A DNA stretch of 64,000 nucleotides from Leptospiraceae bacterium (GCA_016708435.1 JADJFV010000035.1:64001-128000); one strand, 5' to 3'. Counted from the stretch's first letter, positions 3,221 through 38,588 are shown. Translations and numbers: made by a program. The notes: generated by a model not told the origin, from the sequence alone.

Positions 3221-3258
3221 GATATTACTATTTCTCTGATTGAATCTGGTAACTTTGT

Positions 3259-3392
3259 AAATTTTACCCCGTTTAGTTCATTACACCTTATTATGAAAGA
3301 AACGAAAGTCCGATTTTGCTTTATGCTTTAGTTTTGTGGGATAGAAGGAAATAGAATTATCGAGAAGTTGGATGCAGATTACTAGAAAGAAA
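3259..3392 (+). repeat. 135-bp dispersed direct repeat, copy B
   Basis: It aligns with 1275-1412 over its full length. Confidence 0.8.
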
Positions 3393-4006: not shown

Positions 4007-4035
4007 GTAATCTCTTTGGGTTAAACTAGACCTAT

Positions 4036-4158
4036 AAAATTTTACCCCGTTTCGTTCAAAGCAACTCTTTATGAATAAGGAGCAATCCGATTTTGCGTTA
4101 AGCTTTTAATTTGTGGGATAGAATTATAGGAGAAGTTGGATGCAAATTGCTAGAACAA
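4036..4158 (+). repeat. 135-bp dispersed direct repeat, copy C
   Basis: It aligns with copies A and B. The middle is divergent but both ends are conserved. Confidence 0.75.
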
Positions 4159-4185
4159 GAAGTTTACAGACCATTAGCCGCTTTA

Positions 4186-4368
4186 CTATTTGTAATTTTC
4201 AATGAAAATAATTGATTCTGCTGCGATAATTGGTTTCGACCAAAAATAGCCTTGTCCATAATCGCAATTTAATTCTTTAAGTTTTATTCTAATATGTTCT
4301 TCTTCTATTCCTTCTGCAACTGTTCGAATTCCCATACTAGATGCCATTTGAATGATTGCATTTACCAA
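4186..4368 (-). pseudogene. C-terminal fragment of an EAL phosphodiesterase domain (remnant)
   Basis: The 60 aa read ...GIRTVAEGIEEE...YGQGYFWSKPI. The rest of the domain is absent. It abuts repeat copy C. Confidence 0.55.
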
Positions 4369-4419
4369 TGATTTCGTCTAGGCGCTGTCCCTCAAGAGTG
4401 AAGAATATAGAAATACAAA

Positions 4420-6042
4420 TTAGGATTGAGTAAGATTTTGTGAATTTTTCTTCAATACATCTATCTGATCATGGAGAGCGGTAACTGAAAGAGAAAGATT
4501 TTCCGTAGAATGATTGATAGTCTCCATGGCTTTGTGAATTTCTTTGTTTCCATTTTTCTGCTCGGAAGCAATTTGACCTATTTGCTCCGAAAGAGTATAC
4601 AAATGATCGAAAGTTTCTTTCAGTTTAAGATTTACTTTTTTCTCAATGTCCACTTGCTCTTCCAATTCTCTGACATCTTTTTCAATTCGTCCAAGATCTG
4701 AATTTTGTTTTTCAACTTTGCTCCTGACTTCAACAGATAATAAATTGCCTTTTTCCATTTGAGCGGAAGATTCTTTTACGATTAAGTCAATTTCTCTGGC
4801 ATTTGTGGATGATTTTTCTGCCAATTTCCCTACTTCCTGAGCGACCACGGCAAATCCTTTTCCATTTTCACCGGCTCTTGCTGCTTCAATGGAAGCGTTG
4901 AGAGAAAGAAGACTGGTCTGGCGAGCAATTTCAGACATCATCTGGTTGATTTTAGTTACTCTCATAAATGATTCTTTTAATTCTACTAGTAATGAATTGA
5001 GTCTATCAGTAGAAATTTTTACTTCCATGCTGTATTTAGAACTGGTTTTAACATCTTTCGCAATCTGATCTGTTTTGCTTTTGACTGTGTTACTGATTTC
5101 ACTCAATTCATCAAAGTCCTGATCTACAATTTTAACTCTTTTGATTTGCTCCTCTACTAATTGAGCAGAGCTTTCAGAAGAGGCGGAGAGTTCTTCTATA
5201 GATGCTGAAATTTCTTCTACCGAGGCAGCTTGATTTTGGGATTGATTGCTCAATGTTCCAGACATTGTTTGAAGATTTGATATTGTATGGACAAGCTGAT
5301 TTGCAGATTCGGACATTCGTTTGGATTGTATTTGAATCATCTGCTGAGCCGAGACGGATAAGTCTAATTCATTTTTCAACTCTCTTTGCATTGAATTCAT
5401 AAGCGAGACTATAATGCTCAAGCAAAAAAGAATTGCCATTAAGAATAGAACTTTTTGGATTTCATTGGATATAACGATACTATTTGCCCATAGCATACCG
5501 GGATAAGAAGCCATTGTTGTCTTCGAGCCAAGAGATATGCTAAAAAAAAGGGAACCAACATATAGGATAATAACACCAAATCCGATGAACAGAAGGGATT
5601 TAGGTTTGAACAGGAATGAGGAATATATAATTATAAAAATAAATACAACATAATAGCTACTAGCATTAATTGCAATGCTCGCATCTCTCGAACTATAATT
5701 GTATATATCTATATAATAAACAAGACCAAGTAACAACAAATCTATAATCAGAATATTGTTCATCCACGAATCCGATATTTCTTTGCCTTGCTTTCGATAT
5801 ACGGAAGGAATAAATCCATTTAGAAAATAAATCAGAGTTCCCGCTAGATTGAAGAAAAAACTGACAGTTCCCCACTCGATCAAAGAGGAAATAAGCAAAA
5901 TGATACTCAAACCGTATTTTGTTTTTATCAGTAAAGAAACTCCTCGGTTAAGTTTTTGAGTATCTAAATTAGTCGATTGGTTAGCTTGCATGCAGATTTT
6001 CCTCCACCCGGTTTGCCAAATACAGCGATGCGATTCAAACAA
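4420..6042 (-). CDS. Methyl-accepting chemotaxis protein
   Basis: It has N-terminal TM segments and a C-terminal MA signalling domain ([37 protein letters not shown]). The start may be an internal Met near 5991. Confidence 0.8.
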
Positions 6043-6126
6043 TTACCCTCTTTAAAAAATTTAAATTCTAATACTTCAAGATAAATTAATAAGAACTATT
6101 GTGAGTCATTCATTTTTACAAATGAA

Positions 6127-6160
6127 AATTTTTACTCCGTTTAGTTTAAAACATCTCTCT
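6127..6160 (+). repeat. Partial copy D of the 135-bp repeat (5' ~35 bp only)
   Basis: AAATTTTTACTCCGTTTAGTTTAAAACA matches the 5' end of copies A-C. Confidence 0.5.
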
Positions 6161-6402
6161 TTAGCAACGAAAAAGCCTGTTGGCATCTCTGTCAATTATG
6201 AAGGCAGGGAAGAGCCAGGGGAGCAGTTATTCACGAATCCATTTAGGAGTCCCGCGGTCAGTAACGTCTGCCATTTCTCATTTCCATCATTAGGATGTTG
6301 CCAACCAACTATTTTGCAATTGCAAAGGGCGGCAATGAGTAAAATACCTTTCAAAAACCAAGTCATCGCTATCTTCTTCGAAATTCTCATCTAAATTATA
6401 CA

Positions 6403-6436
6403 TCTACACCACAAAAAAACTGCGAGGTGTTATATC
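6403..6436 (+). repeat. Junction repeat R1 (ACACCACAAAAAAACTGCGAGGTGT), copy 1
   Basis: The same 25-mer recurs at 7240-7262 and 8272-8296. Confidence 0.6.
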
Positions 6437-6578
6437 CCCAATGGCACCGACTGTGATGGTATCAGAGGAAATAGATACAGATGTTCCAAAATTATCATTT
6501 GCCTTTGCTTTGGCTCGTGTAAAAACAAAAAAAGTATTTCCTCTTGACAAAGAGCCAATTTCAAACAAAGTAAGGAGC

Positions 6579-7178
6579 ATGGACAACTTAGCGCGTAAAC
6601 TTTTCACCGAAGAAGAATACTTAGAAATAGAAAGACAGGCAACCGATAAAAGTGAATATTACAAGGGAGAAATCTTCGCTATGGCAGGAGCGAAGCGAAA
6701 GCACAATCTCTTAGTCACAAATCTATGCAGGGAGATCAGTTCCATCCTCAAGAACAATCCCTGCGAAGTCTATCCTTCTAATATGAGAGTAAAAAACAAG
6801 ACAGATAGATTTTATACCTATCCCGATGTAACCATCGTTTGTGGAAAGCCGGAATTCTTGGATGACGACGAAGATGTCCTTACAAATCCAACTGTTATTA
6901 TAGAAGTTTTATCTACTTCTACCGAGAAATACGACAGGGGAGGAAAATTTGCTCTCTATCGAAATATACCTTCCGTTCAAGAATACATTTTGGTAGGCTC
7001 CGAAGAAAAGAAAATAGAGTCCTTCTTTCGCAAAGGAGATGAATGGATTTTTCGGGAATCTAAAAACGAATCTTCATATCACTTCCGCTTACAATCTTTG
7101 GATATAGAACTTTCCTTAGATGACATTTATGAAAAAGTAGAACTACCTCCCAAAAGATTGCGAGAGAATTTTTTATAG
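6579..7178 (+). CDS. Uma2-family (DUF820) putative restriction-endonuclease-like protein
   Basis: Motifs are [25 protein letters not shown] and [38 protein letters not shown]. The ORF track starts at 6441. An internal Met at 6579 gives the typical ~200 aa length. Confidence 0.65.
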
Positions 7179-7179
7179 T

Positions 7180-7262
7180 CAGGAACGCACATTGAAGAAG
7201 CTATCCTTTGCTCTCCGCCAATTTCGCGCATAATTCAAATACCCCACAAAAAAACTACGAAG
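7180..7262 (+). repeat. Junction repeat: a shared 55-bp segment (CAGGAACGCACATTGAAGAAGCTATCC...ATTTCGCGCATAA) plus an R1-like 25-mer
   Basis: The 55-bp segment recurs at 9129-9183, where it encodes the C-terminus of the PIN protein. Confidence 0.7.
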
Positions 7263-7332
7263 CTTTTTAAGCTGTCTCTACCCTCTTTTTTCTCTTTACA
7301 ATTTAGAATAAGTGGAATGAGATAGAGAAACG

Positions 7333-8223
7333 ATGATTGCGAACTTAGACAACGAAGTATTTTTCAAGAAAGCATTTACGGATACGTTTGTATTGAAGCA
7401 TTTTGTAAAAGATGTTTTGGAAATGGACTTGGACTTTGACAAAGTAGAAACCGAAAAATCTTTCGATCCAAGGATTGGGAATATTGATTTTAAATATGAT
7501 ATTTTTGCAGAGTCTACGGACAAGCGGGTAATCATCGAAATCCAGAAAGTGGATTACGATTACAACTTCGATCGGTTTCTGCATTATTTTTTAATGGCAA
7601 TCGCTGAGCTTCAACGCAGTTCCAAAGACTATGGCATTGAAAAAACTGTATACGCAGTTATATTTATCACAGCTCCCTACAAGATAAATCAAAAGACTGG
7701 AATCCCCATCAAAGATGAACTTTTGATTTCTAACTTGAATCCGAAGAACATCAAGGGCGATGAATTAAATATCTATGGTCATAGTCTGTTATTTTTAAAT
7801 CCGAATTACAAAAATGCTGAAATCCCAGCGCGTATCCGAGATTGGTTGGATTTAGTTTACGAGTCCATGCACAATCCCGAAAAACCGAGCATCAACCAAA
7901 ACAACGACGGAATCAAACGAGCTTCTGAAATTCTAGACTTTGAACATATATCTCCTTCTGAATGGGAACAAAGCAAAATCCGTGAAGGCAGAAAGAAAGT
8001 GCAGCTAATAGCAAAAGAAGAAGGCGTTGAAGAAGGGAAAATTATCGGTAGAGAAGAAGGAATTAACATTGGTGTTGAGAAAGAAAGAGAGCGTTCTGAA
8101 AAAGAAAAAGAGGATGCAATCAGAAAAGCAATTTCTAAACAAAAGCTTTCCTTAGAAGAAATAGCAGAGGTCTTTGGCGTATCAGTGGAATTTGTGCAGC
8201 ATTTGCCCAAGGGCGTGGATTAA
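7333..8223 (+). CDS. Rpn/YhgA-like PD-(D/E)XK nuclease family protein (putative transposase/invertase-type, TIGR01784-like)
   Basis: The N-terminus has FFKKAF...DIFAESTDKRVIIEIQK (D..E.K nuclease core). The C-terminal region is Glu/Lys-rich and coiled. Confidence 0.55.
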   Translation: MIANLDNEVFFKKAFTDTFVLKHFVKDVLEMDLDFDKVETEKSFDPRIGNIDFKYDIFAESTDKRVIIEIQKVDYDYNFDRFLHYFLMAIAELQRSSKDYGIEKTVYAVIFITAPYKINQKTGIPIKDELLISNLNPKNIKGDELNIYGHSLLFLNPNYKNAEIPARIRDWLDLVYESMHNPEKPSINQNNDGIKRASEILDFEHISPSEWEQSKIREGRKKVQLIAKEEGVEEGKIIGREEGINIGVEKERERSEKEKEDAIRKAISKQKLSLEEIAEVFGVSVEFVQHLPKGVD

Positions 8224-8310
8224 CCCACGCCCTTGGGCAAATACGAATAATTGGGCACGCCTAACACCAATACACCACAAAAAAACTGCGAGGTGTGATA
8301 CTCGCAGTTT
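8202..8310 (+). repeat. Junction: a perfect 17-bp inverted repeat spanning the Rpn stop codon, followed by the R2 repeat (CCACGCCCTTGGG...GGGCACGCCTAACA) and then R1 with its own hairpin
   Basis: TTTGCCCAAGGGCGTGG (8202-8218) pairs with CCACGCCCTTGGGCAAA (8225-8241). R2 recurs at 9192-9235. AAACTGCGAG/CTCGCAGTTT forms a hairpin at 8283-8310. Confidence 0.7.
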
Positions 8311-8481
8311 AGAAAGTGATTGGTTATAGTGTGAAAGTTTATTGAATCTTTCGGATTTTGAGGTTGCAGTTATCAGAGAAATAGAGGCGCTGATGCCTTG
8401 CAAGTAAAGCGAACAAAGTGACAGTTGAAATTTTTAGAGACAAAAATCAGTTGATCTTTTCTAGATAGTCAATATTATACT

Positions 8482-8691
8482 TTGATAGGAGAATGTATGA
8501 CAGAAATTACAGTCAAAGTTCCGAATAACTTATTGAGCATTGCACAGAAACTTGTTGCAGACGGCTGGTTCTTGGATGAAAATGAAATTTTTCTATTGGC
8601 ATTTAGAAATTATTTAAGGACTCATTCAGATGAAATTATCACATCTTTCATTAAGGAGGATATTGAATGGGGTCTGAATGGTAAAGAATGA
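8482..8691 (+). CDS. Small antitoxin-like protein (UPF0175-like partner of the downstream PIN gene)
   Basis: The 69-aa ORF overlaps the downstream PIN-like gene start by 14 bp. This is typical antitoxin-toxin architecture. Confidence 0.45.
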   Translation: MIGECMTEITVKVPNNLLSIAQKLVADGWFLDENEIFLLAFRNYLRTHSDEIITSFIKEDIEWGLNGKE

Positions 8692-9181
8692 ATGGATTGT
8701 CGTTTGTGATGCAGGTCCAATTATTCATTTAGATGAATTAAACTGTTTAGATATACTGGATTTCCAAAAGATCTTGGTTCCTATAACTGTTTGGGAAGAA
8801 ATATTACAATACAGGCGCATTCCTTTGGAAAAAATCAAAGGGCTTGAAATCATCGAAAGAACTGATTTTACTACAGAGTTTTTAGAAATATGTAAATTAT
8901 ATGACCTGCATAAAGGAGAGGCTGCCGCTATTTTCTTATCGCTAGAATTGAAGAACTCTATATTGTTTACGGATGATGGGGCTGCGCGGTTATATGCCAA
9001 AAGTAAAAATATTGCTGTTCACGGAACAATCGGGATTCTGCTTCGAGCAGTCAGAAAAAATATCCGAAGCCCAGACAATATTATAGAAATTCTAAAAAAT
9101 ATAAAAACAAATTCTACACTTCATATTTCAGGAACGCTCATTGAAGAAGCTATCCTTGCTATCCGACAAATTCGCGCATAA
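8678..9181 (+). CDS. PIN-like nucleic-acid-binding protein (COG2405/DUF3368 type), putative toxin
   Basis: The N-terminus VVCDAGPIIHLDELNCLDIL matches DUF3368 PIN-like proteins. The protein is 167 aa. Confidence 0.55.
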   Translation: MVKNEWIVVCDAGPIIHLDELNCLDILDFQKILVPITVWEEILQYRRIPLEKIKGLEIIERTDFTTEFLEICKLYDLHKGEAAAIFLSLELKNSILFTDDGAARLYAKSKNIAVHGTIGILLRAVRKNIRSPDNIIEILKNIKTNSTLHISGTLIEEAILAIRQIRA

Positions 9182-9240
9182 CACCATTACCCCACGCCCT
9201 TGGGAAAATCAGAATAAGTGGGCACGCCTAACATCAATAC
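9129..9240 (+). repeat. Junction: a copy of the 55-bp segment that overlaps the PIN CDS 3' end, plus an R2 copy
   Basis: Compare with 7180-7233 and 8225-8278. Confidence 0.7.
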
Positions 9241-9483
9241 ATACAGATTGACTTTTAATAGATAATTCCTTTAGCGAATGAAATCTAGGACAGGAGATTC
9301 CCCCCTATAAAACTCTACAAGCACACAAACAGCCCTCCCCCATTTTGGGATAATCTACAAAACCTATCAATATAGGACAAATATGAATTTGTTGTTTACG
9401 AATTTTAGTAGGATGAATTTCTTCTGAAGCACTGGAATGTGTTCACGGGAATAAGAGTTTTTGTCGTAGGTGAGATTATAAAA

Positions 9484-9523
9484 TCTTTATCCATAAAAAC
9501 GACCTATTTTTATGGATAAAGAT
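9484..9523 (-). terminator. Perfect 16-bp stem-loop (TCTTTATCCATAAAAA / TTTTTATGGATAAAGA), a likely bidirectional terminator downstream of the LamG gene
   Basis: The inverted repeat is visible directly. The stem is AT-rich and sits 20 bp past the stop of the minus-strand gene. Confidence 0.4.
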
Positions 9524-9543
9524 TGTAAGGTGTATAGAATTTC

Positions 9544-10682
9544 TTAGTTTGAATTGGCTCCAGAAGAAATCCAATTGGCATCAGTCATGTTTTGAAGTGT
9601 GCCATTGAAACTACCTTTTTCATCAATTAGGGTTGTTCCACTAGTTGAATCAAATTTATAATAAGCAATTAAATTTGATTCTCCGGTTGGATTGCTTAAA
9701 GGAGTGTTTCTATTATTTTGGATTTCTGCTTGTGTTCTTGCCACTTTCCAGATGCGTAGATCATCCATTTTTCCTTTATAGAAAAAACCGGAAGAGGTTG
9801 GTGGATTACTACCAGGTTGTGCACCTAAAGTAACAGGACCTAAAGTGGCACTAGTTGTAGTGTCTACAGTACCAGTAATCGCACCTGCAATAAGAGTTCC
9901 ATTTTTATATACTTTGAGTCTATCTGCAGCGGCTAGCGTACCATCAAAAACTACAGCTATATGCGTCCACGTGGAAAGTGTAATACTAGCTGCTCCAGTA
10001 CCCCTGTAACCAGGCTGTGTATTATTTTGAAAAACGTTCAGCCCCGTACCCGAAAGTTCAATGTCGATTTTTGGAATGTCGCTAGTTACTTTGGTACCCA
10101 AAATAGTTACTCCAGACTCAATCAATACCCACATTTCAATTGTATAAGCAGATGCACCTCTAAGATCTGGAATCGTTCCAATAGTAACATGTTGTTTTAA
10201 AGCAACAGCACCAAACTCAAGGGCATTTCCAAACCCAAGTGTTACACATGCAATAGATATGTTAGTCACATTCGCAGTTGCCGTCCCTGTTCCACTTGAA
10301 ACCGTGCAGGTTAATCCAGTTGGTTGCGTTTTCACTGTCACAGCATAAGCCGCTGTTTTCGTTGCAAACGTGAACGTTGTCGCACCACTGGCTACAGTCA
10401 AATCGTCTCCTGCATTGTTCTGAAGCACAAGCCCAGTTGCAGTAAGTCCTGTGATTGTTCCACCGATTGCATAAGTTGCTGCCGCTCCAGTTCCAGTTCT
10501 GTAGCTGTAGCCGTCGCCACTGTTCCACTTCCTCTAGAAGCGAGTGCCGCCGCTGCGAATAGAGGTGTTTTATCATCCTCTTTTTTATTACAATTTATAA
10601 ACGTCAAAGTAGTTGCTAGGGCAATTACTGTGAGGCATTCTATCCATAGACTAAGTTCTTTTTTATTGGTTTTATTTTCCAT
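9544..10682 (-). pseudogene. LamG/concanavalin-A-like lectin-domain lipoprotein, apparently frameshifted
   Basis: The N-terminal ORF (10398-10682) has a signal peptide and a lipobox (TFINC). The body ORF (9544-10428) is Gly/Thr-rich LamG-like (DDLRIWKVARTQAEI). The two frames differ. The in-frame stop of the body frame is at 10534-10536. A GCTACA x2 tandem lies at the junction. Confidence 0.5.
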
Positions 10683-15506: not shown

Positions 15507-15717
15507 TAAACAAATTGTGCGAAAAAATTTAATTCTTGTTAAGGATAGGTAAGGCATTTATAGTTATGAGCTTTTCGGCTTTCGGATTGAAATTAGCAAA
15601 ACTGAAATAAAAGCTAGGAATAGCGTAGATAGAAAAAGAATTACTTGAAATTATTGGGATAGCTTTTATTATTTCCGGCATTCATGAAAAGGTAGCTTGA
15701 GCGCGAGGAGCAAAAAA

Positions 15718-18129
15718 ATGAAACGGGAAACCTTAGATAAAAAAATACCGACCTTATTTATCGTAATCTTTTTTACATTTTGCAATCTAGGGAACCATAA
15801 TACAAAAGAAGAAAATGAATCCTTGTTCACAAATTTGGGATTACTGTTTAGCAGAGCCAATCGACTTACTGTATCAGGCTCTGCAGTAAAAGGAATTGTT
15901 AAAAATGGAAAAGTGTCAATTAGCACCGTAGAAAAAGATGGAAGTTGTAATTCCTCTCAGAGTCTTGCCACTGGAACTACAGACATAACTGGACTCTATT
16001 CTATTTATTATAACAAAGTAGGGGGAATGATTTGTATTACTATTTCCGGCGATCAAAATACTACCATGTATGATGAGAAATCTGGAAAAGACTTACCGGT
16101 TCCATCTACTTCTGATTTTAAACTGGTTTCTATTCTTCCTGAAAGTAAATTTTCTAGTAATTCAAAAAAGAACGCTCTCATCTCTCCCTTTTCAAAATTA
16201 TTATCCAAAAGAATGGAAACCTTAATTAAGCAGGCAGGAGAAGGGGCAGATGTATCGGCACTTTACAAAAAGGCAAGCAAAGAAGTAGTCATCCGATTCG
16301 GTTTAAGTTCTGGTCTTTCAAGTGCTTCGCAAAAAAACAAACGACTTCTAGAAATCAGACCCAGTATTTTAGATTCAGATTATCCAGAATTGGATGATCT
16401 TGTAATAGAACTAGACAACCCGAATAGCCCTATCTCTGCTAAATATCTTTCTGTGCTGGCAGGTTTTTCACAACTGGCAAATTCTTACAAAAAAGAAACG
16501 GAAGTTAAAGTAACAGATGTAGATTCAGTAATAAACGCATTTGCTTCTGATTTTGAGGATGGAGTTTTTGACGGAAAAAATGGTTCGGGCAGTACAGTTA
16601 CATTGGGGGCTGGTCAAAGGCAACTAACGTTTTCTTCCAATCCTCTTACTACTATTTTGCTACCCGCGATTTCCACTTATCTGCAAGAAGGAGGAAATTT
16701 GAGCGTAGGTGTGCCAGGAACAGCAACATCTACAATCACGATAACTCAATTCACAAATCAAACTCAGTTTAATGACAATAGCCCAATCATATCTACTACA
16801 ACAACTACTACACCTACCACCACGCCAACCCCTACGCCTGTGGTAACTCCGATAACTCTCAGCATAACAGCATTTAGTTTTACGGATACTGTAAACGGTT
16901 TAAGCAAAACCTATAACGGCATAATAACTGGAAGCAATATTACAATCGATATACCCTATGGAAAGCTTACGTCCGCGATTCCTTCTATTACTACAAATGC
17001 TACTACCATCATGGCTCCTTCTGCTGTAACAAGCGGAGTAACTTTGTTAGACTTTACAAACCCTGTCACACTTACTCTAAGTGCTGCCAATGCGGCTAAT
17101 GTAGTGTATACCGTTACAGCGTATCCGATAACGCCTGTAGCAGATACAGGTCAGACGATTTGTTTTAACAATGCAACCCCTCAAGGATCTTGCGCTACTA
17201 CAACGGCCACCTTCCCAAATCAGGATGGAGAACTTTTAAATTTTCCAAATGCAAAAGGAACACAAGCTATTTCGACTAACCCCGGTTACCCAAATGATCA
17301 AATCAATCAAGATACTTTAAAAGGTATCGTTTGGAAAACATGCCACGAAGGTCAAACAGGACCAACTTGTGCTGGAGGAACAGCTTCTACCAATAATCAT
17401 GCATCAGCTACTACGCTATGTGGTAATTTGAATTCAGCAAATTCTGGAGCAGGCTATGCTGGATTAAAAAATTGGAGATTGCCGAATGTTTATGAATTGA
17501 ACCAATTATTGGAACTTAACGGTAGCACGACGAATAACAACTATTGGAATGCAACTTTTTTCCCAAATGCACCAGCAGGAGGTTTAAGCAGATGGACTTC
17601 TTCATTAATATTGCCAGCGGCTACTAGTGCTATGACCCAAACTACTGAATACATTCAAAACCAGGCTACTTCCACTCCCAATTATGTTCAATGCGTGAGT
17701 GGACCCGCTTCTCCCGCTTTTGATATGGTTGATAATGGAGATGGAACAATTTTTGATAAAAGAACTAAATTGATTTGGCAAAGATGTGCTTTTGGACAAA
17801 CTAATGATGCTACCTGTTCAGGTGCTCTCGCAACTAAAACCTGGACTAATTCATTGTTAGATTGTAAGAATTTAACTTTAGCAGGAAAGTCTTGGAGACT
17901 TCCCAATGCGAATGAATTTTTGACTCTAGTGGATTTGTCTATTACCACTGTTCCAAAAGTGAATCCTACTCTTTTTCCTAATTTTGGTGTTGCAAATTAT
18001 GAGACTAGTTCAACCAATCAAAATAATCTTGCCTATTCCCATATTTTTGATACCAATGCTACTGGCTTTTATGGATGGTCAGGGAAAGGAAGTGTTTACA
18101 ATTCCCGTTGCGTGGCTGGTCCTGAATAA
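15718..18129 (+). CDS. Large lipoprotein with an N-terminal conserved module, a Thr/Pro linker, and C-terminal 2x DUF1566 (Lcl C-terminal-like) repeats
   Basis: The lipobox is FTFCN. The linker is TTTTTPTTTPTPTP. Two DUF1566-like repeats are NWRLPNVYELNQLLEL and SWRLPNANEFLTLVDL. The first ~350 aa are ~70% identical to ORF 35091-37646. Confidence 0.7.
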   Translation: MKRETLDKKIPTLFIVIFFTFCNLGNHNTKEENESLFTNLGLLFSRANRLTVSGSAVKGIVKNGKVSISTVEKDGSCNSSQSLATGTTDITGLYSIYYNKVGGMICITISGDQNTTMYDEKSGKDLPVPSTSDFKLVSILPESKFSSNSKKNALISPFSKLLSKRMETLIKQAGEGADVSALYKKASKEVVIRFGLSSGLSSASQKNKRLLEIRPSILDSDYPELDDLVIELDNPNSPISAKYLSVLAGFSQLANSYKKETEVKVTDVDSVINAFASDFEDGVFDGKNGSGSTVTLGAGQRQLTFSSNPLTTILLPAISTYLQEGGNLSVGVPGTATSTITITQFTNQTQFNDNSPIISTTTTTTPTTTPTPTPVVTPITLSITAFSFTDTVNGLSKTYNGIITGSNITIDIPYGKLTSAIPSITTNATTIMAPSAVTSGVTLLDFTNPVTLTLSAANAANVVYTVTAYPITPVADTGQTICFNNATPQGSCATTTATFPNQDGELLNFPNAKGTQAISTNPGYPNDQINQDTLKGIVWKTCHEGQTGPTCAGGTASTNNHASATTLCGNLNSANSGAGYAGLKNWRLPNVYELNQLLELNGSTTNNNYWNATFFPNAPAGGLSRWTSSLILPAATSAMTQTTEYIQNQATSTPNYVQCVSGPASPAFDMVDNGDGTIFDKRTKLIWQRCAFGQTNDATCSGALATKTWTNSLLDCKNLTLAGKSWRLPNANEFLTLVDLSITTVPKVNPTLFPNFGVANYETSSTNQNNLAYSHIFDTNATGFYGWSGKGSVYNSRCVAGPE

Positions 18130-18915: not shown

Positions 18916-18927
18916 AGTAAGTTCCTT

Positions 18928-19262
18928 TTGCCACAGAGGGGCAGAGGGGCGGGGGGCCAAAAATAATTATTTTTTTTTATTATTAATAAAAGGAGGGTGG
19001 ATGATATTAAAAAACCCCCCCTCTCTTTCTTTTTTTTTTTAATAAAACCAAAAAAAAAAAAACAAAAAAAAAAAACCCCCTGCCACAGGGGCCCAGGGGC
19101 AAAGGGGCCCAGAGTAAAATTTTTTTTTCCCATTTTTTAATAAAGGCGGGGTGGAAATTAAAAAAAAAACCTTTTCTTCCCTTTTTATTTAATTAATAAA
19201 CTAAAAAAAAAAACAAAAAAAAAAAAATCAAAATATCCTCTCGGTGCGCCTCTGTGGCGGTC
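18928..19262. repeat. Expanded copy of the CACAGAG terminal-inverted-repeat element, with a homopolymer-rich low-complexity interior
   Basis: The left end is TTGCCACAGAGGGGCAGAGG. The right end is CTCTCGGTGCGCCTCTGTGGCGG. The interior is made of A, T, C and G homopolymer runs with an internal ~120-bp tandem duplication. Confidence 0.55.
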
Positions 19263-19267
19263 CCTGT

Positions 19268-19986
19268 TTACTGCGAAGTTTTAACGTAAGGTGCGATGAG
19301 TGATTGGACATGTCCAGCTAATGTCTTGCTATCCATTGTTTTGATTGTATCTACTGTGACAGGAGGAAGGATTGTAATTGTGACATCGGCTGGTTTCATG
19401 ATTCCGTTATTCTTTTCCAGTATATCTGCTGTTCCATCGATTGCGATTGGAACGATAGGCACCATAGCATCCATTGCCAGTCTCACACTTCCTGGTTTAA
19501 AGCTTTGAACCGGTCCACCTTTACTTCTTGTGCCTTCGGGGAAGATAACAAGAGAATGCCCCTGCTTGAGAACTTCTACTCCAGTCCCAATTGCCTCTGC
19601 TGATTTTGCACGATTTGATCTATCCATAAAAACACAATTCATCACTCGCATCCAAGCGCCTACAATTGGAATTTTTAATACTTCTACTTTTGAAATAAAC
19701 CCAAATGGTTTAGGAACAAATCCAATGAGCACAGGAATATCAAAACTTCCCTGGTGATTGGCTACTATTACGACTGCTCCTTTCGGAAGGTTCTCAGCGC
19801 CAACTACTGTTATCCGCCCACCTACAATATTAACTAAACCTTTAGCCCATTTGCGGGGAGTTTTATTTTTCTCCCAATCTGTTTCTTCTACTGTCGCTAA
19901 ATTTACTCTGCTTGCAATCCATCTCTCTATGAAACTCGCAAACCCTCGTATAAAAAAATACAAATAAAATCCAATTGTTCTAAACA
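19268..19986 (-). CDS. plsC: 1-acyl-sn-glycerol-3-phosphate acyltransferase
   Basis: The HX4D motif is VANHQGSFD. FPEGTRS is also present. The start is taken at MFRTIGFYLYFF. The upstream extension (PQCLCGK) is a translation of the repeat. Confidence 0.75.
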
Positions 19987-20006
19987 TGAAAACTCCTTTA
20001 GGAATT

Positions 20007-20141
20007 TTGCCACAGAGACACTGAGGCACAGAGATATTTATTTTCATCTCTGCTTTGGGAACGATATTTATTATAACTCATTTGTAAACATAATTTCCGA
20101 ACATTTACTTTCTTCTCTGCGACTCTGTGTCTCCGTGGCAA
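20007..20141. repeat. CACAGAG TIR element copy A (TTGCCACAGAGACACTGAGGCACAGAG ... CTCTGCGACTCTGTGTCTCCGTGGCAA)
   Basis: It has 27-bp terminal inverted repeats flanking an ~80-bp AT-rich core. Confidence 0.7.
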
Positions 20142-20147
20142 TCTTAC

Positions 20148-23698: not shown

Positions 23699-23891
23699 CA
23701 ATGCTGTCAACTTAAGAATTGTTTCTGTCATTTCGAACATCGCTTGGCGGTAGGATTTGCGGCTAAGCAAATGGGTGGATGTGAGAAATCTATATGGCAA
23801 TACAACGATAGTATTAAGCTAGATAGACCTCTCACGATGAAGCAGTTCGAGGTGACAGGAGAAAAGCACTTTCCTTAAGTTGACAGCATTG
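23699..23891. repeat. Palindromic MITE-like element copy 2 (23725-23858, reverse orientation), nested within an outer 18-bp inverted repeat, CAATGCTGTCAACTTAAG / CTTAAGTTGACAGCATTG
   Basis: The termini are CTGTCATTTCGAAC ... GTTCGAGGTGACAG. The outer inverted repeat is perfect. Confidence 0.7.
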
Positions 23892-25114: not shown

Positions 25115-25134
25115 TGGCTGCTTCGTAGACTTGT

Positions 25135-25342
25135 TTGCCACAGAGTCACGGAGGCACAGAGGGGTTTTAGGAGAGCCTAATTCATATTATCCTAATTATT
25201 TTCGTGATTCGGGTTTGTGTCTATGATACTTAGATGAAAATCATTTAATTCAAAGCTTTCATAAGCTCTCTTTAAATTGATGCATACGAATTTAAAAATA
25301 ACCAAACAAAAAACTCCGTGTCTCTGTGCCTCTGTGGCAAAT
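25135..25342. repeat. CACAGAG TIR element copy B
   Basis: The left end is TTGCCACAGAGTCACGGAGGCACAGAG. The right end is CTCCGTGTCTCTGTGCCTCTGTGGCAA. Confidence 0.7.
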
Positions 25343-31615: not shown

Positions 31616-31821
31616 AAAATAAGGGCTGAGTAAAAAAATGCAGGAGTCTATCTATTCGCGTTAAGCAATCAGATATTTTTTACCAGCCCCAAAATCAGAC
31701 ACACAATTTATCTAGTTAAATTATCGTCTGAGTTCAAAATTTACACTGAAACTTTTTTTATTAAAATTTGATAATATAGGATAAGAATATGTTAAATCTC
31801 TCTAGAAATTCTATAATAAGG

Positions 31822-31962
31822 TTGCCACAGAGTCACAGAGGCACAGAGAAAGGAGAGGATAGAGGATTTAATTTAACGAATAGGTTTTTAAAAAGTTTTT
31901 CTAACATTTCGAAAATTCTTAATGTATTTTCCCCCTCCGTGCCTCAGTGTCTCTGTGGCAAA
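31822..31962. repeat. CACAGAG TIR element copy D
   Basis: The left end is TTGCCACAGAGTCACAGAGGCACAGAG. The right end is CTCCGTGCCTCAGTGTCTCTGTGGCAA. Confidence 0.7.
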
Positions 31963-31965
31963 TCT

Positions 31966-32660: not shown

Positions 32661-32829
32661 CTGTCACCTCGAATAGCTTCACCATGAGAGGTCTATCTTG
32701 CTTACCCTCGCTGCGAAGTTATAAACGCCTTTGTATACTATCCTATCGTTTCATTGCCAGATAGATTTCTCACATCCAGCCATTTGCTTAGTAGCAAATA
32801 CAACCGCTAAGCGATGTTCGAAATGACTG
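32661..32829 (+). repeat. Palindromic MITE-like element copy 3
   Basis: The termini are CTGTCACCTCGAAT ... GTTCGAAATGACTG. The inner inverted pair is GAGAGGTCTATCT / AGATAGATTTCTCAC. Confidence 0.75.
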
Positions 32830-34828: not shown

Positions 34829-35090
34829 CCGATTTCTTTCCATTTTAACTAGGTGCTCTGAGTGAGTGCCTGGTTAAATGCCGGACAATTCGCAGTATTC
34901 GCCTATAGGTATATCTCCATGGAGAGTTACGCCGGACAAGAATTTGAATACTTTTCCAATTTTAGAATCTTAAGGAGGTCGATAGCCTGAATTTAAACTA
35001 CTAAAAAAAGAATTTGCTTGAAATTATTAGGATAACATTTACAATTCTCCGCATTAATGAAAATGAGTTTAGAGAGCAGGGAATAAAAAA

Positions 35091-37646
35091 ATGAAATGGA
35101 AATCCTTAGATAAAAACTTACTACTACTATTAATCATATCTTTGCTACCACTTTGTAAACAAGGAACCGCGAATACTAAAGAAGACAAAGAATCCTTATT
35201 CACAAATTTTGGCTTACTCTTTAATAGATCCAATCGACTTACTGTTTCAGGCTCTGCAGTCAAAGGAATTATTAAAAACGGAAAAGTGTCAATCAACACT
35301 TTAGGAAAGGATGGGACATGTAATTCTTCTCGGAATATTGTAACTGGAACTACAGATATAACCGGATTCTACTCAATTACTTATGACAAAACAGGTGGAA
35401 TGATTTGTGTTACCGTATCGGGGGAACAAAATACAACAATGTATGATGAGAAAACAGCAAAAGATTTATCTATTCCCTCTACTTCTAATTTTAAGTTAGT
35501 ATCCATTCTGCCTGAAAGTAAATTTTCTAGTAACACAAAAAAAAATACTCTCCTATCTCCCTTTTCAAAATTATTATCCAAAAGAATGGAATCCTTAATT
35601 AAACAGTCAGGAGAAGGAGGAGATGTATCCGCACTTTACAGAAAGGCAAGTAAAGAAGTAGTCATTCGATTTGGTTTAAGTTCTGGTCTTTCAACTGCTT
35701 CTCAAAAAAGCAAATCGACTTTAGAAATAAATCCAAGCATCTCTGATTCAGACTATCCAGAATTGGATGATTTGGCAATTGAGCTAGACAACCCAAATAG
35801 CCCTATCTCTGCCAAAGCTTTTTCTGTGCTAGCTGGTTTTTCCCAACTTGCAAATTCTTACAAAAAAGGAACAGATGTTGATATATCCGATATAGATGCA
35901 ATGATAGAAGCCTTTGCTTCTGATTTTGAAGATGGAGTTTTTGACGGGAAAAATAGTTCGGGAAACACAATTACAGTGGGGTCTGGCCAAAGGCAACTAA
36001 CGTTCTCTTCCACTCCGCTCACTACCATTTTACTACCTGCCATTTCCACTTATCTACAAGAGGGAGGAAAATTAAATGTAGGTGTACCAGGAACGCCAAC
36101 GTCTACCATCACGGTAACTCAATTTACAAATCAAACCCAATTTAATGATAATACTCCAATCCTATCTACGACAACTACTCCAACCAATACAACTCCTGTA
36201 ACGACCACACCGACGCAAAATACCATTCCACCAAAAGTCCTTTCGCTAACGCCTACAAATAATTCTACAAATGTTTTAATTGGAACTCCTATTACCATTG
36301 TCTTTGATAAGCCAATGGACATTACAACACTTACGATGATTTCTATGGATGGCACTTGCGCGGGCAATATCCAATTATCCACAAATAATTTTACAACTTG
36401 CATGGGTGGAACGGTTTCTCTCTCTGCTGATCAACTAACAGTGAGTATAACTCCTAAAACTTCCCCCTGTGTTGAATCTACTTATACTTTGCAGTTTAAA
36501 GTATCAACTGGTGTTAAGGATACTACGGGTAATCCGCTTACCTCTGAGTTTTTAAATACAACTACATTTCAAACGCAACAGGCATTTGTTAGAGTAGGCA
36601 TATCCGGCGGTTCAAATATTGTAAATGCATTGGCCGTATCTTGTAATACTTTGTTTGTAGGTGGAAATTTTACAACGGTTGGTAGTTCTACGCGAAATAA
36701 TATTGCTGCTATTAATTTAGCAACAGGTCTTGAGACTCCAATTAATATGGGGACGAATAACACTGTTAATGCATTGCTCGTAAACGCAGGAATTGTTTAT
36801 TTGGGTGGAATATTTACAAATGCAGGTGGTCAAGGTCGAAACAATGTTGCGGCTATCGATCCACTTACGGGAACGGCTACTCCCTGGAATCCGAATGGGA
36901 GTGGTCAAGTAATGTCTTTAGTTTATAACGGAGCAACGGTTTATGCAGGAGGAGCATTTACTACGATAGGGGGACAGGCTCGAAATCGAATTGCTGAATT
37001 AGACCTTGCTAACGGTAATGCAACTGCTTGGAATCCTAATGCTAGCCTTGGAACAATCAATGCGATAGCGTATGATGCAACTAACGTTTACCTTGGTGGA
37101 AATTTTACATCGGCAAATATTGGCGGGCAAACCTATACTCATCTCGCTGCTGTATCTCGAACTACCGGAGCAGGAGTTGCAGGCTGGTGTCCAACAACGA
37201 CTACTTTTCCTGTAAGCGCATTGGTATTAACTGGTGGAGTTCTATTTGCAGGGGGAACTTTTGGTGGAAATCTTTGCTCACTCACTATCTATAATTTTGG
37301 TGGACTTAATCCAGCAAATGCGGCTAGTAGTGGTTATCCGTCAGGAGGAGGGACAGGGGCAGGTGCTGGGGTCAATGCACTTGCAGTGAGTGGGAATAAT
37401 TTATATGTAGGTGGAGCCTTCAATGGGGCTGGTGCCTTTTTTAATCAGGTTAGAAATTATTTGGGATCGACTACTACTGCTGGGGTTCTTAATTCTTGGG
37501 ATCCGAATGCGAACAATACTGTGAACGCAATCACAACCGTAGGCTCAGCCGTAATTATAGGAGGGACTTTTACTACGATTAATGGAGGCACGGCTGTGAA
37601 TAGACTTACAATCGTTGATGCAAATACTGGACTCATTAGACCTTAG
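35091..37646 (+). CDS. Large lipoprotein paralog with the same N-terminal module and Thr/Pro linker as 15718-18129, but C-terminal Ig-like plus ~55-aa beta-propeller-type (delta-60-like) repeats
   Basis: The lipobox is LPLC. The repeats are LFVGGNFTTVGSSTRNNIAAINLATG, VYLGGIFTNAGGQGRNNVAAIDPLTG, VYAGGAFTTIGGQARNRIAELDLANG, and so on. Confidence 0.7.
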   Translation: MKWKSLDKNLLLLLIISLLPLCKQGTANTKEDKESLFTNFGLLFNRSNRLTVSGSAVKGIIKNGKVSINTLGKDGTCNSSRNIVTGTTDITGFYSITYDKTGGMICVTVSGEQNTTMYDEKTAKDLSIPSTSNFKLVSILPESKFSSNTKKNTLLSPFSKLLSKRMESLIKQSGEGGDVSALYRKASKEVVIRFGLSSGLSTASQKSKSTLEINPSISDSDYPELDDLAIELDNPNSPISAKAFSVLAGFSQLANSYKKGTDVDISDIDAMIEAFASDFEDGVFDGKNSSGNTITVGSGQRQLTFSSTPLTTILLPAISTYLQEGGKLNVGVPGTPTSTITVTQFTNQTQFNDNTPILSTTTTPTNTTPVTTTPTQNTIPPKVLSLTPTNNSTNVLIGTPITIVFDKPMDITTLTMISMDGTCAGNIQLSTNNFTTCMGGTVSLSADQLTVSITPKTSPCVESTYTLQFKVSTGVKDTTGNPLTSEFLNTTTFQTQQAFVRVGISGGSNIVNALAVSCNTLFVGGNFTTVGSSTRNNIAAINLATGLETPINMGTNNTVNALLVNAGIVYLGGIFTNAGGQGRNNVAAIDPLTGTATPWNPNGSGQVMSLVYNGATVYAGGAFTTIGGQARNRIAELDLANGNATAWNPNASLGTINAIAYDATNVYLGGNFTSANIGGQTYTHLAAVSRTTGAGVAGWCPTTTTFPVSALVLTGGVLFAGGTFGGNLCSLTIYNFGGLNPANAASSGYPSGGGTGAGAGVNALAVSGNNLYVGGAFNGAGAFFNQVRNYLGSTTTAGVLNSWDPNANNTVNAITTVGSAVIIGGTFTTINGGTAVNRLTIVDANTGLIRP

Positions 37647-38378: not shown

Positions 38379-38588
38379 TTTGCCACCGAGGTACGGATTC
38401 GATAAACTCACCGCAGGCGCCGACACAGAGGGAATTTTAATTCTATTCATGTACATCGTGTGAAAGAGAGTCATAGAAAATATGATTCAAATGAAGTATT
38501 GTAACAGAATCACAACTAACCTTAATTACGAAAACAAATAGAGTTTTTTAAAAAGAACTCTATTTCTCTCTCTTTGTCTCTGTGGCAA
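38379..38588. repeat. CACAGAG TIR element copy E (left end degenerate)
   Basis: The left end is TTTGCCACCGAGGTACGG...GCCGACACAGAGGG. The right end is CTCTCTTTGTCTCTGTGGCAA. Confidence 0.55.

Follow-up and report, generated by a model that had tools for sequence, protein, structure and literature searches.

A strain-variable chromosomal locus of an uncultured Leptospiraceae bacterium in which copies of a predicted terminator repeat lie between nuclease and toxin-antitoxin-like genes

In the stretch of DNA analysed here, 64 kb from a Leptospiraceae bacterium (the window), the segment from 6196 to 9543 is probably the recombination-scarred core of a strain-variable hotspot of an uncultured Leptospiraceae bacterium, where direct copies of a short repeat, R1, drive deletions; we put the probability of this reading at roughly 60%. 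A sequence-only reading of the window had claimed that three short repeats flank the nuclease and toxin-antitoxin (TA) genes of the segment, a gene content of defence or addiction type, and that the repeats are junctions of exchangeable units. These points are borne out: all three repeats are present close to where they had been placed, and in related metagenome contigs the same chromosomal locus carries different genes, which shows that the block varies and has not been passed on by vertical descent alone.

Repeats, genes and gene remnants

R1 (ACACCACAAAAAAACTGCGAGGTGT) occurs in exact form at 6406-6430 (R1a) and 8272-8296 (R1c) and in degenerate form at about 7240-7265 (R1b), where the core CCACAAAAAAACTRCGA covers 7244-7260. 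The copies are direct repeats of 25-45 bp, 0.8-1.9 kb apart, all in one orientation regardless of gene orientation. Of the three positions reported earlier, 8272 is exact, 6408 lies 2 nt inside the first copy, and 7240 marks the degenerate copy. R2 is found at 8219-8274 (R2a) and 9186-9241 (R2b) with a mutual identity of 89%; its sub-motif CCACGCCCTTGGG starts at 8225 and 9192, as the sequence-only reading had it, and its sub-motif GGGCACGCCTAACA at 8253 and 9220. An inverted CCACGCCCTTGGG lies at 8206-8218, within the 3' end of the Rpn-like gene. The third repeat, a 55-bp segment, is present at 7179-7235 and 9128-9181, with 97% identity over the first 30 nt, a 1-nt indel and then 83%. All three repeat families are far above chance expectation; for R1, two matches were reached in 0 of 100 shuffles.

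The array is anchored on the left by the 5' stub of a lipoprotein gene on the minus strand (6196-6390), of which 6274-6390 corresponds to the first 39 codons of a 257-aa lipoprotein gene that is intact in the related loci L001-L008 (90% identity over 39 aa, E = 8.5e-20, tblastn). R1a, on the plus strand, has a left flank of the lipoprotein type; on its right, nothing is left of the R1 hairpin but the loop and the first part of the right arm, 4 nt long (TGTTATATCCCC, to 6439). Directly to the right of R1a lies a non-coding minus-strand stub (6434-6511) from the 3' part of an FG-GAP-repeat surface-protein gene. This stub is 57-75% identical, over 22-26 aa per repeat unit, to the 564-aa FG-GAP protein of L022 (best E = 1.9e-6, tblastn against the repeat units), and the gene caller flagged FG-GAP_2 on the stub's strand in L012.

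The plus-strand gene at 6579-7178 is solidly assigned to the Uma2 family of PD-(D/E)XK endonucleases (Pfam Uma2, E = 5e-32), in line with the earlier call; its start is likely the ATG at 6579, after an AAGGAG ribosome-binding site, and the longest ORF runs from 6441. Abutting its stop codon, the plus-strand copy of the 55-bp segment at 7179-7235 is a decayed stub, frameshifted and non-coding, left from the 3' end of a PIN/DUF3368 toxin gene, and the copy at 9128-9181 is coding, as SGTLIEEAILAIRQIRA* of a 167-aa ORF. That the segment is coding at one place and non-coding at the other had been recognised previously; the 1-nt indel in the stub is also seen in the spacing of repeat families D3 and D4 (1948 vs 1949 nt).

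R1b (plus strand), which lacks a hairpin partner, forms the left boundary of the Rpn-like unit, and the same degenerate junction is found in L025, a locus from a related species. The divergent Rpn-like/PDDEXK_2 nuclease gene (7333-8223, plus strand) encodes 296 aa, and its family matches fall below the curated cut-offs (Pfam PDDEXK_2, 25.3 bits against 27.4, E = 1.4e-5; NCBIfam TIGR01784 Rpn, 33.7 bits against 52.1, E = 3.2e-8). A near-perfect palindrome with 21-bp arms (inverted repeat I1, 8201-8242, 95% complementary) is centred on its stop codon, folds at -24 kcal/mol and is kept in L025 and L031 without compensatory changes. R2 is the distal arm of this palindrome plus a duplicate of the TAAC...CCCAC spacer: R2a (plus strand) begins with the palindrome's right arm and continues through a spacer to GGGCACGCCTAACACCAATACA, a variant of the PIN stop-codon context CGCGCATAACACCAATACC, and R2b (plus strand) has neither a palindrome partner nor an R1 after it.

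The only complete junction module in the window (8255-8340) contains R1c, on the plus strand, a 10-bp hairpin AAACTGCGAG/CTCGCAGTTT (8283-8310) and an outer imperfect stem ACCAAT/ATTGGT. To its right lies what is probably a non-coding minus-strand stub from an NHL-repeat surface-protein gene, covering the C-terminal end (8342-8413), a weak assignment from tblastn matches to the NHL-type proteins of L001, L007 and L025 (E = 0.05-0.9) that are repeated over several repeat units. The left edge of this stub is overlapped by GTTTATTGAATCTTTCGGATTTTG, which in intact genes encodes the conserved end ...K(I/V)R(K/R)IQ*, and positions 8263-8353 match L001 11018-11107 at 82% (blastn).

The TA-like two-gene unit follows on the plus strand (8497-9181), with a candidate promoter at 8451-8478. 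It pairs a 64-aa partner (8497-8691) with an overlapping 167-aa DUF3368/PIN-like protein (8678-9181), whose match to Pfam DUF3368 is weak (24.4 bits against a cut-off of 27.3, E = 2.7e-5). The sequence-only reading had named the partner UPF0175, an assignment that is not confirmed, since the protein matched no family in profile searches; its Rpn-like and PIN calls stand at sub-cut-off level. Homology to other haplotypes stops at 9241/9242, the end of R2b. Beyond this point lies the window-specific 3' flank of a Laminin_G_3 allele of the variable gene (9242-9543, minus strand; Pfam Laminin_G_3), which has its own terminator-like hairpin (inverted repeat I3, 9479-9527) and stands where other strains have the R1-hairpin module; 9196-10261 has no blastn match in L001-L012.

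R1 as half of a predicted terminator

To judge from its sequence, R1 is composed of an A-tract and the left stem of the predicted 10-bp hairpin. On the minus strand, 8310-8283 scans as an intrinsic terminator with a 10-bp stem, an 8-nt loop and the T7 tail TTTTTTTG; single-stranded folding of the junction gives this stem as well. The R1-hairpin module lies past minus-sense stop codons in related haplotypes and in two related species-level lineages, among them those of genes encoding 520 aa in L001, 467 aa in L025 and 159 aa in L022, at distances of 7-30 nt; in the window, only stubs remain of the minus-sense genes that the module would end. Both sequence and position are those of a putative Rho-independent terminator of the minus strand. 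Moreover, the 19-nt R1 core has mismatches in three of nine distinct hairpin-less copies and in one of 14 hairpin-bearing copies, a difference that fits constraint on a terminator, not on a recombination core. The sequence-only reading had missed that R1 is half of this predicted hairpin, that R2 is half of a palindrome spanning the Rpn-like stop codon, and that minus-strand gene stubs follow R1a (clearly) and R1c (weakly).

Gene content and exchange points among related strains

The PIN-type TA pair, a DUF433 pair and the block of the Uma2 and Rpn-like nucleases are each present or absent among the related contigs, and at least six arrangements occur between a DUF5618 or lipoprotein gene and a PDDEXK_9 AAA-ATPase gene. 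With different content between the same conserved flanking genes, the locus is a strain-variable chromosomal hotspot. In L032, the DUF433 pair comes directly after R1 and the PIN TA unit is absent. L001-L008 have R1 with its hairpin, the TA pair, R1 and the DUF433 pair, mostly followed by another R1-hairpin module and the variable gene (L007 is without that module). In L009 and L010, the Uma2 gene, the PIN stub, R1b, the Rpn-like gene and R2 are added ahead of the TA pair, and L036 has the order PIN, R2, R1-hairpin. The variable gene keeps its signal peptide (MENKTNKKELSLW...) and has an NHL, FG-GAP, Lcl_C or Laminin_G_3 body depending on strain or lineage, which shows that replacement at this spot is frequent. 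The conserved pieces are unequal in identity (blastn), at 91.9% for 6274-6434 against L001 9464-9624 and 98.9% for the TA unit.

In every comparison, the sequence on the left of R1 is that of the upstream unit and the sequence on its right that of the downstream unit, which places the exchange within R1. Indel boundaries fall in a stretch of 25-30 bp inside R1 (L032 vs L001; L001 vs the window), and in L032 the 10 nt to the left of R1 are still of the lipoprotein type. Breakpoints follow GAGGTGTTA for the DUF433 unit, ...ATCCCC for the Uma2 unit, CGARGC for the Rpn-like unit and CCCCACA in L009, and one lies just left of R1 at 9241. Breakpoints thus lack nucleotide precision, differing by up to ~12 nt between units.

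Such boundaries might also arise if R1 were a site-specific recombination core, integron- or dif-module-like, whose recombinase is encoded at another place in the genome; units would then enter R1 as circles and could be cut out again, leaving R1 at every boundary. The single direct orientation of the copies and the confinement of indel boundaries to 25-30 bp agree with this explanation, as do the clustering of unit starts in the hairpin loop, an extended module with 8-bp terminal inverted repeats ATAACACC...GGTGTTAT (read from the sequence) and a cargo of TA pairs and nucleases typical of chromosomal cassette arrays. R1 is also unusually conserved between lineages: its left arm is invariant across L022, L025 and L031, though the neighbouring genes are 78-91% identical, and the right arm of the hairpin varies (CTCGCAGTTT vs CCCCGCAGTTT) with no compensating change. 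In a plain terminator one would expect more drift than this left arm shows, so R1 may have a sequence-specific role. Nevertheless, we consider a dedicated site-specific system unlikely. Besides the scatter of breakpoints, one R1 is cut to CCCCACA and another is missing at 9241; hairpin-less copies are decaying (R1b, in two lineages), and the stubs after R1a and, less clearly, R1c are not predicted by circle integration. The collections searched gave no R1 away from this locus and none on a mobile element. No tyrosine or serine recombinase and no integrase, intI included, was found in a scan of 38 of the window's 41 ORFs of 150 aa or more, and none was called within ±10 kb in 10 places.

The nucleases themselves could have spread the units by homing, with the Uma2 or Rpn-like enzyme cutting an intact R1 hairpin in genomes without the gene and repair from a nuclease-bearing copy carrying the gene into the site and disrupting the hairpin. 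Both nuclease genes do adjoin R1 copies with a destroyed or degenerate hairpin (R1a, R1b), NCBIfam names the Rpn family recombination-promoting nucleases, and a second lineage (L025) repeats the R1b and R2-R1 boundaries of the Rpn-like unit. However, units free of nucleases, namely the TA and DUF433 pairs, have boundaries of the same kind, no cleavage specificity is known for these proteins, and the Uma2 gene, in the contexts of 10 contigs read by exact sequence, stands in one fixed arrangement with no sign of independent spread. Homing is thus very improbable as the source of the array.

Integron-like and dispersed-repeat explanations

TA cassettes are common in chromosomal integrons, and GCCTAAC within R2 fits the R'' consensus RYYYAAC, as its minus-strand form GTTAGGC fits GTTRRRY (both read from the sequence). 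The locus might accordingly be taken for an integron remnant (CALIN), with the junctions as species-specific attC sites and IntI since lost or located elsewhere. The complete module 8255-8340 indeed folds as single-stranded DNA into a bulged imperfect hairpin of ~80 nt on both strands (z = -4.6 plus strand, -4.3 minus strand). The other three of the four window junctions do not: 6395-6480 (z = +0.35), 7170-7300 and 9125-9270 (z = +0.8), all with z values from +0.35 to +0.8, fold no better than shuffles, contrary to the attC expectation raised by the sequence-only reading, and at most one site in the window resembles an attC. GCCTAAC, matched there to the R'' consensus without a convincing R' box, is not a paired R'' box but a variant form of GCATAAC, the context of the PIN stop codon. 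Between 6000 and 9700, neither strand contains a RYYYAAC...GTTRRRY pair spaced 50-150 nt, and in the predicted fold of the complete module the AAC triplet does not pair with the GTT triplet. Exchange takes place in R1 and, whichever strand is read, not at the G|TT of an R' box, as the lipoprotein-type 10 nt of L032 illustrate. Among spirochaetes, only the Treponema clade was found with integrons in a 2013 comparative study (PMC3607928). With no integrase among the ORFs scanned or within ±10 kb in 10 places, no attC boxes, one of four junctions folding and exchange in R1, the integron explanation is rejected as scarcely credible. An Rfam search gave sub-threshold microRNA noise only.

R1 and R2 are short, partly palindromic and intergenic, and in L036 R2 stands between 17-bp direct repeats TAACACCATTACCCCAC that resemble a target duplication, features of a small non-autonomous mobile element (MITE- or REP-like) inserted independently between genes. 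An element of this kind would be dispersed, but the copies are confined to the variable segment. R1, R2 and the 55-bp segment have no further copies in the 64-kb window, where an unfiltered search with a covariance model built on the R1-hairpin module gave three matches, all within 6.4-8.3 kb (8255-8340, 102.9 bits; 7224-7298, 30.2 bits; 6389-6462, 27.9 bits; next E = 0.34). The repeats are likewise absent from the flanks of 13 related loci (200 kb), with 39 of 39 matches inside the variable segment, and were not found in phage, plasmid or viral collections. The exact R1 19-mer was found in two relevant species genomes of 185,579 and in eight relevant metagenome contigs, all relevant matches in these two public collections coming from this one locus type. 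R1 alone is also without terminal inverted repeats, and a genuine dispersed MITE of the window (four copies, terminal repeat CTGTCAYYTCGAAC) behaves quite differently from R1 and R2. A dispersed REP- or MITE-type repeat is highly doubtful on these grounds, and the refuting case named by the sequence-only reading, REP-like elements found genome-wide, is not borne out in the window, the 13-locus flanks or the collections searched.

Probable successive replacement at the locus

Besides the invariant left arm of R1 and the statistical weakness of the NHL stub, two points count against a recombination-scarred hotspot. Unrelated units start within ~12 nt of one hairpin-loop point, a clustering tighter than random illegitimate joining would give, and 25-30 bp of identity is close to the minimum for RecA-dependent recombination. 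There may also be a trans-acting recombinase, or additional R1 copies, elsewhere in the genome.

Several known systems share features with the locus. Orphan cassette arrays follow polymorphic toxin genes, rhs, cdi and maf among them. There too, displaced 3' fragments stand in series, and a short sequence that is coding once and non-coding next is the trace of one replacement after another by recombination. What is conserved in those arrays is the end of the toxin core, at which C-terminal toxin domains are swapped together with immunity genes, whereas the conserved element here is mainly a predicted terminator and the units are unrelated genes. The minimal mobile elements of Neisseria, which is naturally transformable and has DNA-uptake sequences, are also different gene sets at the same site between conserved chromosomal genes, exchanged through flank recombination without a dedicated recombinase, with mosaic short repeats at the junctions. 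Unlike the genome-wide repeat family of Neisseria, the repeat here is a predicted terminator half-site at a single locus. Minimal mobile elements and intergenic mosaic repeat arrays of Neisseria are mentioned in PMC3082526 and PMC1538595.

Integron cassette arrays and CALIN (attC clusters lacking integrases; Cury et al. 2016, PMC4889954) resemble the locus in their co-oriented, short, partly palindromic junctions between small accessory genes including TA pairs, in units present or absent between strains and in ORF ends that run into the junction element. The locus differs from them in having no IntI, no paired R''/R' boxes and mostly unfolded junctions, in exchange within a shared 25-bp core instead of at G|TT, and in junction elements that are near-identical, belong to one locus and are followed by a stub at one junction at least, probably two. 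The Acinetobacter dif modules bounded by pdif (XerC/XerD) sites (PMC6449649) are likewise small, often carry TA pairs, have sites of ~28 bp and are shuffled without an element-encoded recombinase. However, pdif sites have two 11-bp arms, a 6-bp spacer and alternating orientation, unlike the R1 copies, which are all direct. By the dif consensus, from which the host's own dif may differ, only GCGCATAA to the left of R1 resembles a XerC arm, with no XerD-like arm after it. The locus described here is chromosomal and has no GC-skew switch.

In the reading that we favour, that of a recombination-scarred hotspot, the R1 hairpin would natively end both the variable surface-protein gene and the DUF433 operon, each on the minus strand, and the locus would hold several copies of one predicted terminator module. 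A module copy would be followed by a displaced minus-strand surface-protein stub, clearly at R1a (FG-GAP) and weakly at R1c (NHL), or would stand behind a plus-strand gene's 3' end (CGCGCATAACACCAATACC, the context of the PIN stop codon); the 55-bp segment after the Uma2 gene would be a frameshifted relic of the PIN 3' end. We infer that successive replacements and insertions stacked these modules of terminator and stub, with nuclease and TA genes between them, the right side probably anchored by long homology, supplied by the PDDEXK_9 gene together with the conserved end of the variable gene that encodes the signal peptide, and the left side joined illegitimately. Homologous or slippage-type recombination between the direct R1 repeats would now delete units, which recombination in the long flanks would bring back. 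Deletion and re-introduction together would give rise to the cassette-like presence and absence of units among strains of this Leptospiraceae bacterium.

Short repeats around the nuclease and toxin–antitoxin genes

All three short repeats that the sequence-only reading had placed around the nuclease and toxin–antitoxin (TA) genes are present, with coordinates correct to within 2 nt. R1 (ACACCACAAAAAAACTGCGAGGTGT), located by pattern search on the forward strand, is exact at 6406-6430 (R1a) and 8272-8296 (R1c) and degenerate at approximately 7240-7265 (R1b), and none of 100 shuffles reached two matches. R2 occurs at 8219-8274 (R2a) and 9186-9241 (R2b) in copies that are 89% identical, and a 55-bp segment occurs at 7179-7235 and 9128-9181. 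The latter copy of this segment encodes the C-terminus of a 167-aa ORF, whereas the former begins right at the end of the stop codon of the Uma2 gene (6579-7178) and carries a 1-nt indel, its halves lying 1949 and 1948 nt from their respective partners. Because of this indel, the copy after Uma2 represents a frameshifted, non-coding relic, confirming that the segment is coding in the PIN unit and non-coding in the other.

The gene assignments held in part. The identity of Uma2 is solid (E = 5e-32). The 296-aa protein encoded at 7333-8223 is a divergent Rpn/PDDEXK_2-like nuclease with a score below the curated cut-offs, the 167-aa protein has a weak match to DUF3368 (PIN-like), and the proposed UPF0175 identity of the 64-aa partner of the latter is unconfirmed since this partner matches no family. 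Sequence searches returned no solved-structure relatives for the PIN-like and Rpn-like proteins. When the upstream regions of the Uma2 and TA (8497-9181) units were compared, similarity was found only in R1, ruling out a shared promoter or leader.

R1 is half of a predicted terminator

R1 (CCACAAAAAAACTGCGAGGTGTTA) constitutes the left half and the loop of a predicted terminator hairpin. At 8283-8310, R1 and CTCGCAGTTT pair into a 10-bp stem with an 8-nt loop, which is followed on the minus strand by seven T residues and is called an intrinsic terminator by a consensus scan. The module at 8255-8340 folds on both strands into an imperfect hairpin of ~80 nt (z ~ -4.5). In related loci, the R1-hairpin module lies 7-30 nt past the stop codons of minus-sense genes, which encode a 520-aa NHL protein in L001, a 467-aa protein in L025 and a 159-aa protein in L022, and it is also found just past the DUF433 operon. 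L022 contains none of the units and has a lone terminator between convergent genes, which is probably the ancestral state.

Gene content varies among related loci, with exchanges inside R1

Related loci were recovered by exact-protein look-ups from many metagenomes and share the same chromosomal neighbourhood. They are bordered on the left by a minus-strand gene for a 257-aa lipoprotein and on the right by a minus-strand surface-protein gene, here called the variable gene, followed by a PDDEXK_9 AAA-ATPase gene. Gene content between these borders differs among the loci, showing that the block is neither invariant nor simply vertically inherited. In L032, a DUF433 pair comes between R1 and R1h, the latter denoting R1 complete with its hairpin partner, and the variable gene comes last. 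In L001-L008, R1h precedes the TA pair, R1 precedes the DUF433 pair, and a second R1h, which L007 lacks, stands before the variable gene. L009 and L010 start with R1, Uma2, a PIN stub plus R1b, and the Rpn-like gene plus R2; R1h, the TA pair, R1 and the DUF433 pair come next, and a second PIN pair and R1h precede the variable gene. The window is arranged as L009 up to the TA pair, then continues with R2b and another variable-gene allele. L036 has PIN, R2 and R1h ahead of the variable gene, and L025, from another species-level lineage, begins with a DUF433 stub plus R1b, after which come the Rpn-like gene plus R2, R1h and the variable gene. Uma2 has one and the same arrangement in each of the 10 contigs read for the exact protein, excluding other genomic contexts for Uma2 among them.

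In the comparisons of L001 with the window and of L032 with L001, the upstream unit accounts for what lies left of R1 (e.g. ...tacatctaca) and the downstream unit for what lies right of it. Because both flanks keep their own unit identity, the exchanged interval is R1 itself (25-30 bp), supporting the proposal that the repeats are recombination junctions. The breakpoints cluster, yet differ in position between units: the DUF433 unit breaks after GAGGTGTTA, the Uma2 unit after ...TATATCCCC, keeping 4 nt of the right arm, and the Rpn-like unit after CGA(A/G)GC. In L009, R1 is reduced to CCCCACA, and the window has a further break at 9241, directly left of where R1 would be.

These features could also reflect site-specific recombination at R1. 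The left arm of R1, unlike the right arm, does not change between lineages sharing 78-91% identity elsewhere, every copy is co-oriented, and unit starts cluster in the hairpin loop. However, mismatches sit mainly in R1 copies without the hairpin (3/9 distinct copies, compared with 1/14 of those with it), a distribution that fits constraint on the predicted terminator, and we regard site-specific recombination as unlikely. Slightly less likely still, R1 could be the core site of an undescribed cassette-capture system of Leptospiraceae that needs no integron integrase, in which insertion and excision of small defence and TA units at the hairpin would be the work of an enzyme that is host-encoded or of the nuclease type. 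Such a system would explain the cross-lineage invariance, the strict co-orientation and the loop clustering of unit starts. If R1 is truly a recombination site, it would represent a new route of defence-island assembly in spirochaetes, among which Treponema is the sole clade known to have integrons (PMC3607928).

The R2 palindrome

R2 opens with 20 nt that are reverse-complementary to the final seven codons of the Rpn-like gene, so that the gene end and the R2 start make up a 21-bp palindrome with the stop codon at its centre (fold -24 kcal/mol). The R2 tail, CACGCCTAACACCAATACA, is a variant form of CGCGCATAACACCAATACC, the context of the PIN stop codon, and in L036 a 17-bp direct repeat, TAACACCATTACCCCAC, is present on both sides of R2. 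The R2 copy behind PIN neither has the partner arm nor folds; the Rpn-like unit is its most likely source, via recombination in this short repeat. The palindrome is kept in L025 and L031 with substitutions that are not compensated, and structural selection on it is rejected.

The repeats are confined to one locus and are not integron sites

Pattern searches of the 64-kb window found no further repeat copy. Run with filters off, a covariance model of 11 distinct R1-hairpin modules matched in the window only at 8255-8340 (103 bits), 7224-7298 (30) and 6389-6462 (28), the next-best match having E = 0.34, and all 39 matches in 200 kb of 13 related loci were within the variable segment and in a single orientation. 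Among 185,579 species genomes, the exact R1 19-mer CCACAAAAAAACTGCGAGG matched 10 stretches, two of them relevant (one Leptospiraceae MAG and one Spirochaetota MAG); it also matched 12 metagenome contigs, of which all eight relevant ones are of this locus type. It had no hit in the collections of viral contigs, plasmids and phages, and a phage or plasmid origin of the module is rejected. The collection scans and the unfiltered covariance model thus reject genome-wide REP or MITE elements as an explanation, the repeats being locus-confined in the window, the 13 loci and the collections. The sole Rfam matches, on the palindrome, were microRNA noise below threshold, and a known RNA family is rejected. 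So is a tRNA-linked island, since the window has no tRNA gene, and a chromosomal dif site or terminus is considered unlikely, there being no GC-skew switch and only a partial resemblance to a XerC arm.

The confinement of R1 and R2 contrasts with a truly dispersed MITE of ~100-170 bp with the terminal repeat CTGTCAYYTCGAAC, of which the window has four copies (298-430, 23725-23858, 32661-32829 and 58407-58507); eight termini were found, compared with 0.06 matches predicted by shuffles. These copies adjoin unrelated genes, including the start of an IS91 pseudogene and the end of an OmpA-family gene. The 133-bp copy at 298-430, with terminal inverted repeats CTGTCACCTCGAAC and GTTCGAAATGACAG, splits an IS91-family transposase gene (Y2_Tnp, E = 5e-15) that occupies 1-1160 and extends past the left window end.

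A motif in R2 had also been likened to an integron attC box. Against the definitions of attC structure and CALIN (PMC4889954), RYYYAAC...GTTRRRY pairs 50-150 nt apart are missing from both strands of 6000-9700, three of the four junctions do not fold as single strands, and the exchange points, lying inside R1, do not fit a crossover at an R' box in whichever module orientation. Neither intI nor any other integrase or recombinase domain of the tyrosine or serine type was found in a scan of 38 of the 41 window ORFs with a length of 150 aa or more, or within ±10 kb at 10 places. The attC reading is rejected on these grounds, and a true integron remnant is very improbable. The IS91-family Y2 transposase is likewise rejected as the recombinase of the array, being a pseudogene split by the MITE; L001-L008 have other genes left of the array, with no IS91-type transposase called.

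Gene remnants and the variable gene

Right of R1a, 6434-6511 (minus strand) is an FG-GAP repeat fragment, 57-75% identical to the repeat units in the variable protein of L022 (best E = 2e-6). The segment to the right of R1c, 8342-8413, has a weak likeness to the C-terminal repeat of NHL-type variable proteins (E = 0.05-0.9). It overlaps GTTTATTGAATC..CGGATTTTG, a motif that codes for the conserved end ...K(I/V)R(K/R)IQ* where the gene is intact. Left of R1a, 6274-6390 corresponds to codons 1-39 of the lipoprotein gene, of which L001 has an intact copy. With the PIN stub after Uma2 included, the array can be read as successive modules of a terminator and a remnant, with accessory genes between them.

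The variable gene (9544-10576, minus strand, in the window; 11093-12655 in L001, 7228-8265 in L009 and 53-1747 in L022) combines one signal peptide (MENKTNKKELSLW..., also MENKTNKKELSLWIECLTVIALATTLTFIN) with an NHL, FG-GAP, Lcl_C or Laminin_G_3 body depending on strain or lineage. Different bodies behind one signal peptide point to frequent replacement at this site. The window gene is split into two overlapping ORFs (10262-10576 and 9544-10428) and may be frameshifted.

To the left, the window has a methyl-accepting chemotaxis protein gene (4420-6042, minus strand) together with an EAL stub in place of the lipoprotein gene body (window 4093-6273 compared with L001 8729-9463). The conserved 161-bp island at 6274-6434 and the TA unit appear to have different histories, since they are 91.9% and 98.9% identical to L001, respectively.

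Other repeats and insertions

A ~140-nt module at 1260-1410, 3243-3392 and 4021-4160 (66-79% identical to the reference copy over the first 100 nt) carries a ribosome-binding site and an ORF start (ATGGGAGAAGTTGGATGCAGATTACTAGAAAGAGA); its copies lie upstream of a GGDEF fragment, upstream of a DUF5618 gene and beside the EAL stub. It is probably the first set of junction repeats, and has the look of 5' stubs in several copies, which would mirror the 3' stubs of the array. In L002 and L004-L008, an IS3-family element (rve and HTH_Tnp_1 genes, 5771-7086) is inserted in a gene left of the DUF5618 gene, and is missing from L001 and L003. Elsewhere in the window, intergenic repeats TTTGCCACAGAG(N)CAC(N)GAGGCACAGAG are dispersed in either orientation and often surround gene ends as inverted pairs (18927-20143, 25119-25342, 31806-31963 and 38562-38590), and long A/T homopolymer tracts are present at 19029-19234. 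A 300-nt direct repeat (15633-15932 and 35006-35305, 76% identical) covers the upstream region and start of two large paralogues at 15697-18129 (Lcl_C domain) and 35091-37646.

A probable recombination-scarred hotspot

A recombination-scarred hotspot is the best-supported reading of the locus. From its observed anatomy and polymorphism we infer successive replacements that would be anchored in the long conserved right flank, with left ends joined illegitimately inside the 3' part of the resident variable gene. Each replacement would leave a terminator and a stub and bring in neighbouring accessory genes, and the co-oriented R1 copies thereby produced could mediate deletions. L001 would be derivable in this way from an L009-like array and L032 from L001, and the junction of PIN stub and R1b in the window from an L025-type array of PIN-R1...DUF433-R1b. 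The variants would pass between strains through ordinary recombination in the long flanks.

In summary, the locus is a strain-variable chromosomal hotspot of repeat-mediated gain and loss, a new example in a little-studied family. It provides a worked example of how a short terminator half-site, duplicated by successive replacements, would become the breakpoint for cassette-like gain and loss of TA and nuclease genes, with an integrase found neither in the 64-kb window nor in the flanks of the related loci, and cautions that junction repeats of defence genes can mimic an integron in genome scans. Moreover, body swapping of the variable surface-protein gene may bear on antigenic or adhesive variation in this group.
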